This document shows positions 1,233-9,617 of a stretch of 64,000 nucleotides of DNA, one piece after another; the first letter of the stretch is position 1; every line of letters begins with the position of its first letter. Under the pieces are notes generated by a model that worked only from the letters and a program-made list of their open reading frames with translations, did not search any database and had not been told where the DNA came from. The position numbers and the translations under genes are program-made. The DNA comes from Candidatus Coprovivens sp. (GTDB lineage: Bacteria; Bacillota_I; Bacilli_A; RF39; UBA660). Where the stretch lies: contig JBJFGS010000025.1 of assembly GCA_051892935.1 (NCBI GenBank), forward strand, positions 64,001-128,000. The letters run 5' to 3'.

Positions 1233-1769
1233 GTGATTAAAATAAGTGAAATTAAATTAATAAATGGTTCATGCGCTGAACAAAAAGTAGATGCTATAGT
1301 AAATGCTGCTAACAGGAATCTCTGGGCAGGCGGAGGAATATGTGGAGCAATATTCAAAAAAGCAAGTTATAAAGAATTAACTCAAGCATGTAGCAAAATT
1401 AAAACACCATTAAAAGATGGTAATGCAGTTATAACACCATCTTTTAATATTAGTAATTGCAAATATATAATACATGCTGTAGGTCCAGATTTTGGAAAAA
1501 CACCATCAGCGTTTAAAGAGTTATACGACGCATATTATAACTCATTAATTGTACTAAGAGAAAACAATTTACATTCTATATCATTCCCATTAATAAGTTC
1601 AGGAATATTTGGCTATGGATTAGATAACCCAGTAGAAGAATCGACCAAACAATGTTTAAGAGCATATAATAAATTTATTAATGATTACCCAGATTATGAA
1701 ATTAACGTTTTACTATGTGCTTATAATAAGAAAGAATATATAATTGCTAAAGAAATACTAAATATATAA
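1233..1769 (+). CDS. Macro domain protein (ADP-ribose binding/hydrolase, YmdB/MacroD-like)
   Basis: Motifs DAIVNAAN, GGGICGAI, IIHAVGP and FPLISSGIFG. Confidence 0.93.
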   Translation: MIKISEIKLINGSCAEQKVDAIVNAANRNLWAGGGICGAIFKKASYKELTQACSKIKTPLKDGNAVITPSFNISNCKYIIHAVGPDFGKTPSAFKELYDAYYNSLIVLRENNLHSISFPLISSGIFGYGLDNPVEESTKQCLRAYNKFINDYPDYEINVLLCAYNKKEYIIAKEILNI

Positions 1770-1958: not shown

Positions 1959-3476
1959 ATGTTTAATGTATTAGATTATCTAGAAAATTCTGCAGCAAAA
2001 TATAAAAATAAAATAGCTGTAATTGAAGAAGAAAAAAATATCTCATATGAAGAACTATATCATATGAGTAAAAGAGTAGGATCATACTTTGCAACTAAAA
2101 ATATTTCCAATGAATTAATAGTAGTATTTATGGATAAAGGAATAGACACACTAATATCTTTCTTCGGAAGTGTATATGCAAATTGCTATTATAGTCTAAT
2201 AAATCCAGAGCTACCAGAAGTAAGAATTAATAATATAAAAGAAACAACAAACGTAAAATATATAATTACTAATGATGAATATGAGGAAATAGCTAAAAAG
2301 TATTTTGAAGATTTAGAAATAATAAATATTAAAACTTTGAAAGAAAACGAAATAAACGAAGAAGCACTTTCTATATCTAGAAATAATCATATTGATTGTG
2401 ATCCACTATATGTAAATTTTACTTCAGGTTCAACCGGTATTCCAAAGGGAGTGGTTGTATCACATCGTTCTGTTATAGACTTTATTGATAAATTTACTGA
2501 ACTATTTCACTTTAAGAGTAATGATATAATAGGAAATCAAGCTCCTTTTGATTTTGATGTTTCAGTAAAAGATATTTACTCATCAATAAAGATAGGAGCA
2601 ACATTAGTCATTATTCCTAAAAAGTATTTTTCTAGTCCATCAAAACTATTAGATTATATTTGTGATAATAAAGTTACAACACTAACATGGGCTGTTTCAG
2701 CATTATGTTTAATTACAACATTCCATGGATTAGAATACAAAACCCCTATAACAGTAAATAAAGTTATATTTAGTGGTGAAGTAATGCCATTAAAGCATTT
2801 GAAACAATGGATGGAACATCTTCCAAAAGCAACATTTATAAATGTGTATGGTCCAACAGAAATTACATGCAATTGCACATATCATATAATAGATAGAAAT
2901 AGAGATTACACAGATAAGATTCCGATAGGAATTCCATTTCCTAATGAAAGAATTTATCTATTAAATAATGAAAATAAACTAATTACAACCCCTAATGAAA
3001 CAGGTGAGATTTGTGTAGGGGGAACATGTCTAGGTTTAGGATACTTTAATAATAAAGAACAAACAGAAAAAGCATTTATTCAAAACCCAACAAATGAAAA
3101 GTATATTGATCTAATTTATAGAACCGGAGACTTAGGATACTATAACGAACAAAAAGAACTAATGTTTAGTGGCAGAAAAGACTTCCAAATAAAATATCAA
3201 GGACATCGTATAGAACTTGAAGAAATAGATAAAGCATTAATGAATATTGAAAACATCATTAGAAGTTGTACTATATTTGAGGAGGAAAAGAGTAAATTAT
3301 ACGGTTTTTATATAGGAGACATTGATTCAAAAGAATTACACCATAAACTAAAAGAAATACTACCTATATACATGATACCTACTAAATTAATAAAGATGAA
3401 TGAATTCCCAATGACCAAAAACGGAAAAATAGATCGTAAAAAATTAATGGAATGTAAAGGTGAAAAAAATGATTAA
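1959..3476 (+). CDS. Stand-alone amino-acid adenylation enzyme (DltA-like)
   Basis: Core motifs FTSGSTGIPKG, FDFDVSVKD, NVYGPTE, YRTGD and NGKIDR. Confidence 0.93.
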   Translation: MFNVLDYLENSAAKYKNKIAVIEEEKNISYEELYHMSKRVGSYFATKNISNELIVVFMDKGIDTLISFFGSVYANCYYSLINPELPEVRINNIKETTNVKYIITNDEYEEIAKKYFEDLEIINIKTLKENEINEEALSISRNNHIDCDPLYVNFTSGSTGIPKGVVVSHRSVIDFIDKFTELFHFKSNDIIGNQAPFDFDVSVKDIYSSIKIGATLVIIPKKYFSSPSKLLDYICDNKVTTLTWAVSALCLITTFHGLEYKTPITVNKVIFSGEVMPLKHLKQWMEHLPKATFINVYGPTEITCNCTYHIIDRNRDYTDKIPIGIPFPNERIYLLNNENKLITTPNETGEICVGGTCLGLGYFNNKEQTEKAFIQNPTNEKYIDLIYRTGDLGYYNEQKELMFSGRKDFQIKYQGHRIELEEIDKALMNIENIIRSCTIFEEEKSKLYGFYIGDIDSKELHHKLKEILPIYMIPTKLIKMNEFPMTKNGKIDRKKLMECKGEKND

Positions 3477-4629
3477 TTTTGAAAAAATAGCCAAAGAATA
3501 CGGAACACCAACATTCATATATGATATTTCAACATTAAAAAAGAGAATATCATATCTAAAAGAAAATTTACCAGAAAACATTAATCTTGTATATGCTGTT
3601 AAAGCAAACACATTTATAATCAAAGAATTAGAAAAAGACGTAGAAAGATTCGAAATATGTTCAAAAGGTGAATTCGATATATGTAATAAACTTAATATCG
3701 ATTACAAAAAAATGGTCATCTCCGGTGTCAACAAAGATGACGCATCAATAGATGAAATGATTTCAAACTATAAAGAAATAGGCAAATATACTATAGAATC
3801 AGTTAATCAATATAAACTTTTAAAAGAAAAGTGTGAAAAATATAATAGAAATATTAACGTTTTAATAAGACTTACATCAGGAAACCAATTTGGTGTAAAT
3901 GAAGAAGAAGCAATCGATATATTAAAAGAAAATAATGAATTTATTAATATATCAGGATTTGAATACTTTTCCGGTACTCAAAAACATTCAATAAAAAAGA
4001 TTAACAAAGAAATTGATTACTTAGTAGAATTCGTTAATAAAGTTGAACAAGAACTAAATATATCAATCGAAGAAATAGAATATGGACCAGGATTCCCAGT
4101 TTACTATTTCCAAGATGATGAATTTGCTGAAGATGAATTTCTAAAAGAAGTTTGTATAGCCTTAGAAAAAATGAAGAACAAAAAAATATCTTTAGAATTA
4201 GGACGTAGTATAGCAGCCAGCTGTGGTTACTACTTAACAAAAGTAGTTGATATGAAAACTAATAAAAACGGCAATCACATAATTTTAGATGGCGGAATAA
4301 ATCATCTAGTATACTATGGTCAAACAATGGCAATGCGTATTCCAAAATACAAACTATTACCCGAGAAAGAAGATACAGAAGAAACTTATAACCTATATGG
4401 TTCATTATGTACAATAAACGATATAATAATTAAAAGTTTAAAAACTAGAAAACTACAAACAGGTGATTTATTCGTTTTTGAAAACGTCGGAGCATACTCT
4501 ATAACAGAAGGAATTGCACTATTCCTTAGTAGAGACATGCCCAAAGTTATATTATACGACGAAACAAATGAATCAAAATTAATAAGAAATACAATAAAAT
4601 CAAGTGAAATTAATTGTCCAAAGTATTAG
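3469..4629 (+). CDS. Fold-type III PLP-dependent decarboxylase (LysA/ODC/BtrK family), divergent
   Basis: YGTPTFIYD, PLP lysine YAVKAN, ELGRS, GSLCTIND and GAYS; overlaps the upstream gene. Confidence 0.88.
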   Translation: MINFEKIAKEYGTPTFIYDISTLKKRISYLKENLPENINLVYAVKANTFIIKELEKDVERFEICSKGEFDICNKLNIDYKKMVISGVNKDDASIDEMISNYKEIGKYTIESVNQYKLLKEKCEKYNRNINVLIRLTSGNQFGVNEEEAIDILKENNEFINISGFEYFSGTQKHSIKKINKEIDYLVEFVNKVEQELNISIEEIEYGPGFPVYYFQDDEFAEDEFLKEVCIALEKMKNKKISLELGRSIAASCGYYLTKVVDMKTNKNGNHIILDGGINHLVYYGQTMAMRIPKYKLLPEKEDTEETYNLYGSLCTINDIIIKSLKTRKLQTGDLFVFENVGAYSITEGIALFLSRDMPKVILYDETNESKLIRNTIKSSEINCPKY

Positions 4630-4643
4630 AAGGAGTGAGTTAT

Positions 4644-4874
4644 ATGGAAAAATTAATTGAAATATTAGAGGAACTAAACCCAGATGTTGATTACAACACA
4701 ACAGAAAACTTAATAGATGGAAGATATTTAGATTCACTAACAATCTTATCATTAGTAGCAGAAATAGAAGATGAATTTGATGTAGAAATACCAACAGTAG
4801 AAATAATACCTGGAAATTTTAATTCAGCAAAGAAAATTTGGGAACTAATTAAAAAACTAAAAGAGGAAGAATAA
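4644..4874 (+). CDS. Acyl carrier protein (DltC-like)
   Basis: Small acidic protein with phosphopantetheine site YLDSL and C-terminal NFNS; RBS AGGAG. Confidence 0.92.
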   Translation: MEKLIEILEELNPDVDYNTTENLIDGRYLDSLTILSLVAEIEDEFDVEIPTVEIIPGNFNSAKKIWELIKKLKEEE

Positions 4875-6463
4875 TGTCATATTTGCATCCTGCTTATTCT
4901 TTCCTTTTTTTACCTATTCTTATAGTTATATATAATATCTTACCAAAAAAGGTTAGACCATATTTATTATTAATTAGTAGTTTAGGTTTTTTTGCTTTCA
5001 TAAGTAAAGGTCTAATAATATTTCTAATACTATCTATAATATCAATTTATCTAGTAGCTAGATATCTTACTAAAATAGATAAAAAAAGAGACCAAGTATT
5101 AGAAAATGCAGAGAAAGAACAAAAAAAAGAAATAAAAGAACAATATAAGAAAAAAAAGAAAATAATACTTATAATCGGTATTCTATTTAATATAGCATTC
5201 CTATTTTTCTTCAAATATCTAAATTTTTTTGGTTCTATAGCCAATGACATATTAAATTTATTTAATATAAATTGTCATTATACAATAATAAAAATTGCTG
5301 CACCAATAGGGATTTCATATTATACATTACAAGCAGTATCCTATATATTAGATGTATACAACGAAAAAATAGAAGCATCAAAAAACTTCTTCAAAGTCGC
5401 TTTATATTTATCATTCTTTCCTCAAATAATGGAAGGACCAATAGCTAAATACGAAGATACAGCTGACGATTTATTTGAAGGTAATAAAGTTACTTATAAA
5501 AATTTCTGTTTTGGTTATCAAAGAATTCTATATGGTTTTTTCAAAAAATATGTTATAGCAGATCGTATTAATATCATAGTCAAAACAATCTTCGAAGGAT
5601 ATGCGCTATACAGCGGCATTCCGATTTGGCTAGGTGTAATTTGTTACACTATTATGCTTTATATGGAATTTTCTGGAACGATGGATGTTGTAATCGGAAC
5701 AGGTGAAATGTTTGGTATAAAAATACCTGAAAACTTTAGACAACCATTCTTTGCTAAAAACATCTCAGAATTTTGGACTAGATGGCACATAAGTTTAGGA
5801 ACATGGTTTAAAAACTATATTTTCTTTCCTGTTTCACTATCAAAACCAGTAAAAAAACTAACACTTAAAACAAGAAAAATTCTTGGAAATAGATTTGGCC
5901 AACTAATAGGTGGAGCTATAGCACTATTTGCAGTATGGTTCTTAAACGGGTTATGGCATGGTGCAGGATGGACATTCCTATTCTACGGTATGTACCAATT
6001 TACACTAATATTATTAGGTAATATATTCGAACCAACAATAAACAAAATTTGTGCAAAAATCCATCTAAATCGTCAAAACAAAGTATACAGAATATTCCAA
6101 TCTATAAAAATGACATTCTTTGTCTTTATAGGAGAGTTATTCTTTAGAGCACCATCTTTAAAAGTTGGATTCGAAATGTTATATAAAATGTTTTGTAACA
6201 TAAAACTATCATCATTAACAAATGGTGAATTATTACATTTAGGTGTAGATTTATGTGACTATGGAATAGTCATAATAGCTCTTATAGTAATATTTATAAT
6301 AAGTCTATTAAAAGAAAAAAACATTAATATAAGAGAAGAAATAAGTAAGAAGAATATCTTTATTAGATGGAGTCTATACTACATATTAATAATTTCAATA
6401 ATAATATTTGGAGCTTATGGACCAGGTTACATTCCAGTAGATCCAATATATGCAGATTTTTAG
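4874..6463 (+). CDS. MBOAT family O-acyltransferase (AlgI/PatA/DltB-like) with C-terminal Tyr motif
   Basis: PIGISYYTLQ, FFPQIMEGPI, ENFRQP, EFWTRWHISL, catalytic GLWHG; ends in PIYADF. Confidence 0.95.
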   Translation: MSYLHPAYSFLFLPILIVIYNILPKKVRPYLLLISSLGFFAFISKGLIIFLILSIISIYLVARYLTKIDKKRDQVLENAEKEQKKEIKEQYKKKKKIILIIGILFNIAFLFFFKYLNFFGSIANDILNLFNINCHYTIIKIAAPIGISYYTLQAVSYILDVYNEKIEASKNFFKVALYLSFFPQIMEGPIAKYEDTADDLFEGNKVTYKNFCFGYQRILYGFFKKYVIADRINIIVKTIFEGYALYSGIPIWLGVICYTIMLYMEFSGTMDVVIGTGEMFGIKIPENFRQPFFAKNISEFWTRWHISLGTWFKNYIFFPVSLSKPVKKLTLKTRKILGNRFGQLIGGAIALFAVWFLNGLWHGAGWTFLFYGMYQFTLILLGNIFEPTINKICAKIHLNRQNKVYRIFQSIKMTFFVFIGELFFRAPSLKVGFEMLYKMFCNIKLSSLTNGELLHLGVDLCDYGIVIIALIVIFIISLLKEKNINIREEISKKNIFIRWSLYYILIISIIIFGAYGPGYIPVDPIYADF

Positions 6464-6472
6464 GTGATCATA

Positions 6473-7408
6473 ATGAAAAATATTTTAAAAAGCATAATAT
6501 TTGTAACAATATTTATCCTAATCCTAGTAATTTTAACTTTTATACTATTGCCTAGTAAAGACATATTAGAATTTGGTGTATACAATATTTCAAAATATGA
6601 GATACTTGGTGAGAAAAGAGATACAATCGATGTCGTAGCAATAGGAGATAGTCTTGTATATAGTTCATTATCTCCTATGGAAATATGGAACGAATATGGA
6701 TATACAGCTTTTGATAGTGCCGAGCCAGCTCAAATAATAGAAAATACATACAAAAGTGTCGATATAGCTATAAAAAGTCAACATCCAAAAATAATACTAT
6801 TAGAAGCAAATGTAATTCTAAGAGATCCAAAAAATCAAAACAAATACACTAGACTATATAGAGAAAATAAAGACTTTAATCCATTAGGTCTACACCATAA
6901 TAACTGGAAAAACTATATTACATATGGAGATAAGTCAGAATGGATAAATGTGTACAAAGGTTTCAAATTCATTACCAAAATAGAGCCTTCAAAAAACAAA
7001 GCATATATGAAACCATCAAAAGAATTAAGAGTAATACCAAACAACAACCTAAAAGTATTCAATAAAATCGTATCACTATGTCAAAAAAACGATGTTAAGC
7101 TAGTTTTAATAAGCTTTCCAACTCAAACATCTTGGGGATACAAAAAACATAACACAATAGCTAAAATTGCCTCAGAAAACAATTTAGAATTTATTGATTT
7201 AAATCTAATAGATTTAGGAATTGATTGGCAAATAGATACTAAAGATAATGGTTCACATTTGAACTATCGCGGAGCTCTAAAAGCAACAAAATATATAGGA
7301 GAATACCTAAGCAAACTAGAAATGTTAGAAGATAAAAGAAAAAATCCAGAATACGAATCCTGGAATAAAGCTTATGAAAAATATATAAAAACGGAAGCAA
7401 TGGCATAG
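6473..7408 (+). CDS. Membrane-anchored SGNH/GDSL-type acyltransferase (DltD/PatB/AlgJ-like)
   Basis: N-terminal TM helix, IGDS nucleophile motif and DNGSHLN catalytic His motif. Confidence 0.85.
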   Translation: MKNILKSIIFVTIFILILVILTFILLPSKDILEFGVYNISKYEILGEKRDTIDVVAIGDSLVYSSLSPMEIWNEYGYTAFDSAEPAQIIENTYKSVDIAIKSQHPKIILLEANVILRDPKNQNKYTRLYRENKDFNPLGLHHNNWKNYITYGDKSEWINVYKGFKFITKIEPSKNKAYMKPSKELRVIPNNNLKVFNKIVSLCQKNDVKLVLISFPTQTSWGYKKHNTIAKIASENNLEFIDLNLIDLGIDWQIDTKDNGSHLNYRGALKATKYIGEYLSKLEMLEDKRKNPEYESWNKAYEKYIKTEAMA

Positions 7409-7731
7409 TCACCATCATGAGATATAGATAAAGAAATATTACTAAAATTGTAATCTTCTTTAATCTTACCTTGAAAGATAAAATAAGGTGCACCATTCAT
7501 ATTGTGACTTACTATAATATCCTTTAAGGAATAATCACTTATTCCTTTTTTTATTGCTTTTAAAAATGCCTCCTTAGCAGCATAAATACCAGCTATAGAA
7601 GCTAAAGAATAATCACACTTTTTCAAATAATATAATTCAATATCATTAAAATTATCATTTAAAAACTTATTATTCTTAGAAATACTTTTAAATCTATTAA
7701 TTTCAACTAAATCAATACCATTAGATATCAA
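7372..7731 (-). CDS. acpS: Holo-ACP synthase (4'-phosphopantetheinyl transferase)
   Basis: GIDLVEI, AAKEAFLKA, GAP and LSISHDGDYAIA. TTG start after GAGGTG; overlaps the 3' end of the SGNH gene by 37 bp. Confidence 0.93.
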   Translation of the reverse strand: MISNGIDLVEINRFKSISKNNKFLNDNFNDIELYYLKKCDYSLASIAGIYAAKEAFLKAIKKGISDYSLKDIIVSHNMNGAPYFIFQGKIKEDYNFSNISLSISHDGDYAIASVFIYFS

Positions 7732-7854
7732 TCTAACCACCTCAAATAAATAATAACACATTTATAATTAGAAAGGATAACTTAATATCAAAAATAAAAA
7801 ACATATTTATTGATAAGAAATAGTTTTTATATTATAATAAAAACAAGATAAAGG

Positions 7855-8769
7855 GTGATTATAATGATAAAAGCCATATGCTTAGGAAGAGTTACATATG
7901 ATATAAATTTAGTCGTAGACAAGTTACCATCAGATGGCTCCAAAAATGAGTTTTTTGAAAAAAACGGCAATGTTGGAGGAGAAGCAGCACTAGTATCATG
8001 TTGTTTTTCAAAATGGGGTATTAATACTACATTCGCCGGTGTATTAGGAAATGATGTTAACGGAACAAGAATTAGGAAAATATTTGATAAATTACACATT
8101 GATACAAGATACATAGAACCATCTTTTGATAACGATACACCTATGACAATAGTATTAATTAATAAAAGTACTCAAAACTACACTGTAATTAACATATCTG
8201 ATAAATACGTAGGATTAAAAAAATGTGATTTCGATTTTACACCTGATTTAATCTTCGTAGATGGATACGATGCAGTACAAGCTAAGAACTTATTAGAAAG
8301 ATACCCTAAAAGTCTTTCAGTAATCGATGCAAGCTTAGTAACTAGTTCAGTAATTGACTTAGTAAAAAAAGCCAAATACGCTGTATGTAGTAGAGAATTT
8401 GCCGAATCAGTATCCGGAGAAAAAATCGACTTTCAAGTGCCATCTAGTATCATTAAAGCATATCAAAAATTAAAAAAGAAATATCTAAATACAGAAATAA
8501 TAATAACGTTAGGTGAAAGAGGAGCCTTATATTGCATAAATAATCAAATAAAAATAACTCCATCATTAAAAGTTAAAGTTGAAGATACACATGGCTGTGG
8601 ACCTATTTTTAGAGCAGCCATTGCTCATACATTAATAGGTGGTGGAGATATCGAAAAAGCAGTGAAAATTGGTTGTATTGCAGGAAGCCTAGCTGCAACA
8701 AAAGTAGGTGCTCTAGATTCAATTCCTACGCTAGAAGAAATAAAAAATATATATGAGCAAAACTATTAA
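7855..8769 (+). CDS. PfkB/ribokinase-family protein, possibly catalytically degenerate
   Basis: GVLGNDVNG, TLGERGA and DTHGCGP (canonical motif is DTxGAGD). Confidence 0.85.
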   Translation: MIIMIKAICLGRVTYDINLVVDKLPSDGSKNEFFEKNGNVGGEAALVSCCFSKWGINTTFAGVLGNDVNGTRIRKIFDKLHIDTRYIEPSFDNDTPMTIVLINKSTQNYTVINISDKYVGLKKCDFDFTPDLIFVDGYDAVQAKNLLERYPKSLSVIDASLVTSSVIDLVKKAKYAVCSREFAESVSGEKIDFQVPSSIIKAYQKLKKKYLNTEIIITLGERGALYCINNQIKITPSLKVKVEDTHGCGPIFRAAIAHTLIGGGDIEKAVKIGCIAGSLAATKVGALDSIPTLEEIKNIYEQNY

Positions 8770-9022
8770 AGATCCATTTACTTATTTCTTTCCCCAACTT
8801 GATATACATGGAGAAACAACTTTAACATGTAATGCAGTAATAAATTCTTTTATAAAAGATAACATTAAATTAAAAAGAAAAAATATTATAATCATTCATG
8901 GCAAAGGAAGCGGAGCCTTAAGAAAAGCTACACATGAATATTTAAAGCACAACAAAAATGTAGAAAAGTATTATATTGATGGTCTTAATGATGGTCAAAC
9001 AATAGTTGAACTAAAATTATAG
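8753..9022 (+). CDS. Stand-alone Smr domain protein
   Basis: LDIHG, IIHGKGSGALR and NDGQTIVEL. Confidence 0.9.
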   Translation: MSKTIKDPFTYFFPQLDIHGETTLTCNAVINSFIKDNIKLKRKNIIIIHGKGSGALRKATHEYLKHNKNVEKYYIDGLNDGQTIVELKL

Positions 9023-9063
9023 ATAGTTTTTAAACAAAAACATTAAAAAATGTTTAAAAACTC

Positions 9064-9146
9064 TTGCAAAACATCCCCATAATTGCTATAATAATGCACA
9101 AACCATTGAAAATTGAGCACAAAAAGTGAGCAAAATTTGACGGTTT
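9064..9146 (+). promoter_or_regulatory. sigmaA promoter followed by a structured 5' leader hairpin (9100-9146)
   Basis: TTGCAA-17-TATAAT with TG extension, then AAACC-A-TTGAA-AA-TTG-AG-CAC-AAAAA-GTG-AG-CAA-AA-TTTGA-C-GGTTT. Confidence 0.65.
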
Positions 9147-9197
9147 TCTCTAGTAGTGTTAGAATTAAAGCACGAAAAGGAAATAGGGGGTATAATT

Positions 9198-9617
9198 ATG
9201 AAAGGATATGTTTTAGATTATATTAACGAAAATGAATTTAAAAAACTAGAAAGAGCATTAAAAAAATATAATATGCTAGCTTATAAAAAATTAAATTTTG
9301 AATATTATCCTGCATTAAGAAATGGTAAATTCGTTGGTAAAATGACTAGTCAAAATAAAAAAGCTGGTACTGAAACATACGAACTTAAATTACCAAGTGA
9401 TAACATGTTTACTCAAGTTCATGGTGACGTTAAATTAATATATACTGTATATGTAAAAGAACAAACAATTATGTTAAATACTATTACTCCATCTGATATA
9501 TTATTAGAAGGACACAAATCTGAATTAACAACATATAAAGGTATTATGATATCAAAACAAAACGCATCTAAAGATATGTTTAAAATAGACTTATTAAAAA
9601 TGTTACAAGACAAATAA
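9198..9617 (+). CDS. Hypothetical protein, possible RelE/ParE-like fold
   Basis: ATG after AGGGGG. Pattern YELKL...GDVKLIYTV...IMLNTI resembles RelE YRLRV-GDYRIIY-VLVL. Confidence 0.6.
   Translation: MKGYVLDYINENEFKKLERALKKYNMLAYKKLNFEYYPALRNGKFVGKMTSQNKKAGTETYELKLPSDNMFTQVHGDVKLIYTVYVKEQTIMLNTITPSDILLEGHKSELTTYKGIMISKQNASKDMFKIDLLKMLQDK

Follow-up and report, generated by a model that had tools for sequence, protein, structure and literature searches.

The window analysed here, a 64,000-nt stretch of the Candidatus Coprovivens sp. genome (assembly GCA_051892935.1, contig JBJFGS010000025.1, positions 64,001 to 128,000), carries an operon of five co-directional genes (1959–7408, + strand) whose ends overlap or abut. 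They encode a stand-alone, DltA-like adenylation enzyme (A), a fold-III pyridoxal phosphate (PLP)-dependent decarboxylase (DC), a carrier protein (CP), a membrane-bound O-acyltransferase (MBOAT) as well as a membrane-anchored SGNH-fold protein (P5), with a convergent gene for holo-ACP synthase, acpS, at the 3′ side. We consider it highly probable that this operon directs a carrier-dependent MBOAT-SGNH acylation of the cell envelope with a group other than D-Ala. The whole chain, including decarboxylation of the amino acid on its carrier to an omega-aminoacyl group, is in our judgement evenly poised. The known counterpart, D-alanylation by the Dlt system, is the textbook Gram-positive route by which surface charge, cationic-peptide resistance and host recognition are tuned. 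An earlier description of the window made from its letters alone (hereafter the sequence-only reading) had listed the five coupled genes and the convergent acpS, which were confirmed, positions included, as were the motifs it had named: DVSVK and IFSGE in A, the PLP Lys, NQFG and FSGTQ in DC, and PIYADF at the end of the MBOAT.

A DC profile (A1) was built from 14 homologues and run on a collection holding one genome per species. At least 594 matched stretches encode relatives, and the best 80 of these were kept. All five genes occur in the same order, A-DC-CP-MBOAT-P5, in 74 of the 80 loci; among the six loci lacking the full set, five are truncated by a contig end and one is the Agathobacter locus L111 described below. 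Loci L020 (21% identity) and L126 were left out as non-members. A second sample, taken evenly over the phylum of the host with 399 genomes scored, gave a DC match (E ≤ 1e-30) in 10 genomes, the host (G000) included. The five genes are present in all 9 of the other DC-positive genomes, in three orders: A-DC-CP-MBOAT-P5 (n = 5), MBOAT-P5-A-DC-CP (n = 3) and P5-MBOAT-A-DC-CP (n = 1). A-DC-CP remains contiguous and in order in all nine. Three gene orders around a constant A-DC-CP suggest two functional units, one of donor proteins (A-DC-CP) and one for transfer (MBOAT-P5).

DC is linked to the cluster in 83 of the 84 loci with room for it, with A identities down to 42%, and this gene arrangement is far beyond chance. 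Consistent linkage had been set beforehand as a test of the sequence-only reading; DC was always linked in the survey (74/80 loci; 9/9 genomes), and the inconsistent linkage that would have spoken against that reading was thus not observed. Carriers among the at least 594 stretches include Agathobaculum, Ruthenibacterium lactatiformans, Faecalicoccus pleomorphus DSM 20574, Lachnospiraceae, Oscillospiraceae, Erysipelotrichaceae and many gut and rumen metagenome-assembled genomes (MAGs). In one of the DC clusters, about 1.1 kb separates DC from CP (L035:6353-7498).

The models for DltA, LysA, DltC and DltB are the best named matches of A, DC, CP and MBOAT, all with scores below their cut-offs, so that these proteins are relatives of the respective families and not members. 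A (1959–3476, + strand; 505 aa; Pfam AMP-binding, 209 bits) scored 303.9 bits with the DltA model NF003417 (cut-off 476) and 293.4 bits with TIGR01734 (cut-off 559.85), and did not reach equivalog level. The segment forming its pocket (residues 185–315) found its best solved matches in the DltA chains 3fcc and 3dhv (63 bits). Where solved DltA has FSFDLSVMDIY, FLFCGEVLP and NTYGPTEATVAVT, A of the window has FDFDVSVKDIY, VIFSGEVMP and NVYGPTEITCNCT, with DVSVK at residues 200–204 and IFSGE at residues 270–274. Asp197 of DltA corresponds to Asp200, while Leu198 is replaced by Val201, Met201 by Lys204 and the Cys of FCGE by Ser272; in addition, Val296 takes the place of Thr, Cys304 that of Val and Asn305 that of Ala. 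The contrast with DltA noted before from the letters alone (Lys for Met, IFSGE for FCGE) is therefore correct when held against solved chains.

The pocket positions Asp200, Val201, Lys204, Trp244, Ser272, Cys304, Asn305 and Lys490 are invariant or nearly so over 87–91 aligned rows, with overall identity down to 42%. Such invariance suggests that the members all load the same substrate and that this substrate is unlikely to be D-Ala. The pocket Lys would suit an acidic substrate.

DC (3460–4629, + strand) is BtrK/SbnH/LysA-like and matches Orn_Arg_deC_N (56.5 bits) and Orn_DAP_Arg_deC (53.4 bits); the probable start is the ATG at 3469, which the public gene call uses and which gives a protein of 386 aa. 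The PLP Lys48, NQFG (142–145), FSGTQ (170–174) and Cys317 can be located in it. About 60 positions are conserved at ≥97% over 91 aligned rows, and the conserved blocks (Lys48, QFG, F-x-G-T-Q, E-x-G-P-G, E-x-G-R, DGG, G-x-L-C-T-x-N-D and GAY...EG..LFL) mark DC, on this alignment, as an enzyme under strong selection.

A homologue of DC is labelled diaminopimelate decarboxylase in public annotation. DC itself scored 168.1 bits with the lysA model, short of the cut-off of 297.9. Canonical LysA (436–477 bits) is encoded elsewhere in four of the five DC-carrier genomes examined, and the identity between DC and these four LysA proteins of the same genomes is only 19–22%. DC and LysA have the same fold and share the PLP Lys and the blocks E.GR, DGG, G.LC..D and GAY. 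Unlike DC, LysA has H-x-H-I-G-S-Q, a 15-residue loop before [ST]KFG, GGG, DGGM-x-D-N-I-R, CESGD and S-x-Y-N, all replaced in DC by other blocks that are invariant in its family; several of the replaced blocks presumably bind the distal end of diaminopimelate. The assignment of DC as LysA in general was rejected on the coexistence of canonical LysA and on this replacement of motifs, and by its motifs DC is a LysA paralogue, not LysA itself. One genome that carries both canonical LysA and the cluster DC also holds a third LysA-like paralogue (G150:C23:169052-170191; 139 bits, below cut-off).

Against solved structures, the DC family profile scored 173 bits with BtrK, 167 with the SbnH-type chain 6knh and 160 with LysA, which is suggestive of a closest kinship to the carrier-dependent BtrK. 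BtrK and the DC family have [YF].GTQ, QFG, DGG.HH and FL.[RH] in common, BtrK's own variants being YTGTQ, RQFG, DGGMHHH and FLGH. Thus, FSGTQ and NQFG, which had been pointed out as deviations, are indeed present and are better read as BtrK-like features than as oddities. The proposal of a decarboxylase of the BtrK kind held in that DC is not LysA, is always linked to the cluster and has a profile that fits BtrK best; the lead of BtrK is narrow. According to PMC11350588 and PMC7183216, BtrK, CtaF and FlvO decarboxylate Asp or Glu tethered to a carrier protein via the side chain, and CtaF does not accept free aspartate (PMC7183216). The 'btrK' of PMC8336468 was discarded: it belongs to an unrelated transporter gene cluster and is not the BtrK of butirosin. 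A structure prediction of the DC dimer in complex with CP gave scores of 0.25 and 0.18 against a mark of 0.32 and is no evidence either way.

CP (4614–4874, + strand; PP-binding, 24.1 bits) probably begins further downstream, since homologues start at Met11, position 4644 (alignment A3). Its putative phosphopantetheine attachment site, Ser41 in LDSL, is conserved in 88 of 88 rows, and NFNS at 68–71 is specific to the family. As with A, its scores fall short of equivalog level: 36.2 bits with the DltC model NF003464 (cut-off 68) and 19.8 bits with TIGR01688 (cut-off 52.35). The convergent acpS (7372–7761, − strand; ACPS, 43.6 bits; acpS model, 66.9 bits with a cut-off of 59.8) is the sole gene of the ACPS family in the host genome (one match genome-wide); of the 74 complete loci, 25 showed an acpS homologue. 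As the only such gene of its host, it probably has a housekeeping role and primes CP in addition.

The MBOAT (4874–6463, + strand; 529 aa; Pfam MBOAT, 53.4 bits) has a DltB-like core, which aligned over residues 89–424 with the DltB model TIGR04091 (146.8 bits; the cut-off of 375 was not reached). Arg303, Trp304 and the catalytic His305 of the RWH motif, as well as His362, are present in 86 of 86 rows. An AlphaFold2 (AF2) model of the protein (pLDDT 82) matched DltB best (6bug and 8jem, E about 5e-11, TMt 0.69–0.70), ahead of HHAT and PORCN. Beyond the core, the model shows a C-terminal extension (6251–6460, + strand) of two extra helices, residues 460–481 and 495–513, and a tail ending in PIYADF (6443–6460) with Tyr526. 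A C-terminal Tyr motif had been part of the sequence-only reading, and it is conserved: Tyr is fourth from last in 84 of 85 complete homologues, 83 of which end in Phe. The first position of the hexapeptide is mostly Pro, compared with Phe in FXYXXF. According to PMC12148441, the FXYXXF acyl-shuttle motif is carried by DltX in Dlt systems and is fused to the MBOAT in the PatA type. No DltX-like open reading frame (ORF) was found in the 189-nt gap before A.

P5 (6464–7408, + strand; 314 aa) has no Pfam match and no NCBIfam match at E ≤ 0.01, and a single-sequence search of the PDB returned nothing meaningful (best E 0.64); its fold is known from a structure model only. SGNH hydrolases are the top matches of this model (pLDDT 87), with Z of 12–14, and PatB scored Z 12.4, which bears out the SGNH protein of the earlier description. 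An N-terminal helix (2–27) is followed by Gly61-Asp-Ser63, His145 and Asp261-x-x-x-His265. Gly61, Ser63 and His145 are conserved in 85 of 85 rows and His265 in 83 of 83.

These features place the operon between systems that have been described separately. As in Dlt (DltX, DltA-D), an adenylation enzyme and a small carrier protein form the cytoplasmic donor, the pocket segment of A is most similar to DltA, the MBOAT is nearest to the DltB fold and a membrane-anchored SGNH protein is its partner. In contrast to Dlt, all Dlt equivalog cut-offs are missed, the pocket has Lys, Ser, Cys and Asn where DltA has Met, Cys, Val and Ala, DltX is missing with the Tyr motif fused to the MBOAT, and a decarboxylase comes in addition. 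For P5, an SGNH fold with an N-terminal anchor was seen, and DltD was not among the structural matches listed for it. With the PatA/PatB and AlgI type (PMC12148441), the operon shares an MBOAT with two extra C-terminal helices and a Tyr hexapeptide, and a separate SGNH protein; the catalytic His of the MBOAT, its C-terminal Tyr hexapeptide and a Ser/His pair in the SGNH partner, as in PatAB/AlgIJ, are all found here. Apart from the Pro at the first motif position, the difference lies in the donor: the same source describes MBOAT-SGNH pathways other than Dlt as using acyl-CoA without a carrier protein, whereas every one of the 74 complete loci here encodes A and CP. The presence of both a carrier protein and a fused Tyr motif makes the operon a hybrid of the two described MBOAT-SGNH types.

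The donor unit has its own parallels. In BtrI/J/K (butirosin), CtaD/E/F (closthioamide) and FlvL/N/O (fluvirucin), a fold-III PLP decarboxylase is likewise encoded together with an ATP-dependent loader and its carrier protein. They feed secondary metabolites, whereas the triad studied here is coupled to an envelope MBOAT-SGNH relay; moreover, BtrJ and CtaD are ATP-grasp enzymes (PMC7183216), compared with a DltA-like adenylation loader here. An exosortase-A-associated pair was also compared, and scored far lower than its models demand (TIGR03098, 186.6 bits with a cut-off of 592.35; TIGR03099, 165.5 bits with a cut-off of 478.45); no exosortase context was seen. These models describe an AMP-forming ligase and a LysA-like decarboxylase in a polysaccharide context, and the pairing of the two enzymes resembles that of A with DC. 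Full-text literature searches, which did not extend to the original Dlt mechanism paper or to supplements, returned no account of such an operon or of a carrier protein combined with a fused motif, nothing relevant on beta-alanyl teichoic acid, and on the acyl shuttle or DltX no relevant work other than that on Dlt and PatAB.

A search of the phylum sample with the MBOAT gave matches in 63 of 400 genomes, and the neighbourhoods of 12 long, high-scoring matches outside DC clusters were examined together with loci L121 and L125. Clusters of A, CP, MBOAT and SGNH genes without a decarboxylase, with other A pockets and a fused Tyr motif, were present in 10 of these 14 loci (8 of the 12 new ones plus L121 and L125): L121 (5049-9312, genome G348), L157, L158, L159, L163, L164, L160, L161, L125 and L165. 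Six have a pocket of type S, in which the equivalents of 235 and 239 are both Ser and that of 330 is Asp; two loci each have type K2 (FDACLKE) and type K3 (FDASAKD), both of which keep Asp235 and Lys239. The remaining four loci contain MBOAT and SGNH genes only (L162, L166), weak A and CP matches only (L167) or an MBOAT only (L168). Genomes G348 and G392 each hold two different systems, those of G348 being a type S and a DC cluster. A maximum-likelihood tree built from 29 A rows unites the 19 that are linked to DC in one clade (support 100/99), apart from types S, K2 and K3. In a quick MBOAT tree, the MBOATs of two DC clusters group with those of K-type clusters with modest support, a placement that hints at module shuffling.

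Among these relatives, a type S locus was also seen in a Massilimicrobiota timonensis record (L122). In the DC-less cluster L125, from a Lachnospiraceae MAG, a surface-protein gene (7728-9356), whose product has a transglutaminase core as well as Ig-like domains, lies between A and CP. Locus L124, found via a sister A enzyme, is another kind of cluster (SDR, KAS III and hexapeptide transferase).

The sister types bear directly on the Lys at the PheA-239 equivalent, which the sequence-only reading had named as a difference from DltA. The argument from this residue is weakened: the same Lys occurs in the DC-less types K2 and K3 and by itself cannot mark a carboxylate that DC later removes. Co-variation of Lys204 with the decarboxylase was likewise rejected, as type S lacks the Lys but K2 and K3 have it. 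Of that reading, the single conserved module with a linked DC, the Tyr motif and the SGNH fold stood.

From the gene content, conservation, linkage, folds, catalytic residues and kinship to DltA, DltB, BtrK and PatB-type proteins, we infer the following catalytic steps. AcpS would prime CP at Ser41. A would then load not D-Ala but another amino acid, for which Asp or Glu, attached via the side-chain carboxyl, is the best candidate, and the BtrK-like DC would strip the free alpha-carboxyl on the carrier to give beta-alanyl- or 4-aminobutyryl-S-CP. His305 of the MBOAT would move the aminoacyl group across the membrane onto its own Tyr526, from which P5, with Ser63 and His265, would take it and esterify an acceptor that is probably a polymer of the teichoic-acid type. 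The proposed elements of this scheme are the substrate (Asp or Glu, with beta-Ala or 4-aminobutyrate (GABA) as the product), the regiochemistry, the decarboxylation on the carrier and the acceptor polymer. The host genome contains three LtaS-like genes and three genes for TagF-like CDP-glycerol glycerophosphotransferases (G000:C25:16598-23452). The latter are on the same contig as the operon, 42–48 kb upstream of it, and are candidates for synthesis of the acceptor polymer.

Several observations weigh against this scheme, and they were considered along with four other explanations. As K2 and K3 show, the Lys at the 239 equivalent is found in systems with and without a linked decarboxylase. The lead of BtrK over 6knh and LysA is small enough that kinship to BtrK is suggestive only, and the single DC sequence ranks 6knh (annotated 'probable diaminopimelate decarboxylase', and which we take to be SbnH) first, several LysA chains next and BtrK after these. 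DC could instead act on a free amino acid and supply the substrate of A (Asp to beta-Ala, Glu to GABA or meso-diaminopimelate to Lys), the same relay exporting the product. Most characterised fold-III decarboxylases among the matches do use free substrates (LysA, Lys/Orn and D-Orn/D-Lys decarboxylases), and the host has DapF but no canonical LysA, which leaves room for a lysine-supply role in this genome. We nevertheless regard this as unlikely, since the family profile fits best BtrK and then the SbnH type, both of which, judging by their names, probably act on tethered amino acids, since the LysA blocks that presumably bind the distal diaminopimelate end are replaced, and since DC always lies between A and CP. 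In addition, free Asp is no substrate for the analogous CtaF (PMC7183216). A further difficulty for the proposed scheme is that A keeps the Asp that binds the alpha-amino group and resembles the alpha-carboxyl-activating DltA, so that side-chain activation is an assumption. With its DltA-like character and its Asp200 and Lys490, as in alpha-carboxyl-activating enzymes, A would also suit a cluster in which the PLP enzyme performs other chemistry on the carrier, either epimerisation or beta-decarboxylation of alpha-linked Asp to alanyl-S-CP, and an ordinary alpha-amino acid ester is exported. The marginal Ala_racemase_N match of DC (24.9 bits with a cut-off of 24.1) points the same way. Yet, like the decarboxylases, DC has kept the two decarboxylase domains and the Cys317 of the G.LC..D block, the close solved relatives are all alpha-decarboxylases and we know of no fold-III beta-decarboxylase; this explanation is distinctly unlikely.

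It is very unlikely that the A-DC-CP triad feeds a small molecule or a lipid, as in butirosin or closthioamide, with MBOAT-SGNH acylating a lipid or protein or serving export. The known triads of an A or ATP-grasp enzyme, a carrier protein and a decarboxylase do all come from secondary metabolism (PMC11350588 and PMC7183216). Locus L111 (3397-11092, from an Agathobacter bin) also counts on this side and against an envelope role: after its A-DC-CP come rpsL, rpsG, fusA and tuf, and neither an MBOAT nor an SGNH gene lies within 8 kb, so that L111 represents a split system or else an assembly join. On the other hand, no non-ribosomal peptide synthetase (NRPS), polyketide synthase (PKS) or other tailoring gene recurs in the flanks compared, where only acpS and a two-component system do, and bacterial MBOAT-SGNH pairs with a Tyr motif acylate envelope polymers, as described in PMC12148441. 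Most improbable of all is a merely divergent D-alanylation (Dlt) operon next to a lysine-biosynthesis decarboxylase gene. DltA, DltB and DltC models are indeed the best named matches of A, MBOAT and CP, and canonical dlt was not found in the lineage (401-genome phylum sample); but the three scores are all far under the equivalog cut-offs, the residues that form the D-Ala pocket in DltA have given way to different ones, which are invariant, and the linkage of DC (83/84 loci) holds while canonical LysA coexists in 4 of 5 genomes.

Canonical DltB was found in 0 of 401 sampled phylum genomes (E ≤ 1e-80 or over cut-off), with Bacillus subtilis and Lactococcus lactis positive as controls, and many abundant gut anaerobes carry the five-gene module. 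The host genome contains no other DltB-like gene, no other LysA-like gene and no canonical DltA, and DapA was not found in it; the assembly (1.81 Mb, 53 contigs) is 92% complete. Tentatively, and with the odds somewhat against so broad a statement, gut and rumen Firmicutes without Dlt may place omega-aminoacyl esters, made by decarboxylation of Asp or Glu on the carrier, on a teichoic-acid-type polymer, the operon being one branch of a larger family of carrier-dependent MBOAT-SGNH systems with a fused Tyr motif, in which interchangeable donor modules (at least 4 A types) deliver different acyl groups. If true, the microbiota would have an envelope decoration of a new chemical class, and thiotemplated decarboxylation would reach from antibiotic pathways into cell-wall biology. 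A further consequence would be an end to the dichotomy stated in PMC12148441, with Dlt (carrier protein and DltX) on one side and other MBOAT-SGNH systems (acyl-CoA and fused motif) on the other.

The surroundings of the operon were inspected as well. The first 14 kb of the window is AT-rich, with a GC content of 0.20–0.30. A promoter scan gave 41 sites compared with 50.4 in shuffled sequences, that is fewer than shuffled, and is uninformative. By consensus scan only, 3 terminator-like sites were found with 1.4 expected; one is a hairpin just after acpS, within the 3′ end of P5 (7345–7364, − strand). Just 5′ of the operon, a macro-domain protein is encoded at 1233–1769 (+ strand; 98 bits), and an ORF cut by the window start (3–584, + strand) combines a ubiquitin-family domain (42 bits), which is unusual in a bacterium, with an InlB B-repeat-like domain and a hydrophobic C-terminal tail. 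On the downstream side lie genes for a PfkB kinase and for an Smr protein, both of which are shared with the closest locus, L040, and with no other. The two-component system that recurs in the flanks of other loci, absent from the window, pairs an OmpR-type response regulator with a histidine kinase of about 530 aa and directly adjoins the operon in about 19–20 of the 89 loci compared. It lies upstream of A in L082, L083, L091, L095, L100, L075, L077, L087, L096, L104, L106, L109 and L114-L117, and downstream of the operon in L071 and L105, which suggests envelope-stress control in some lineages.

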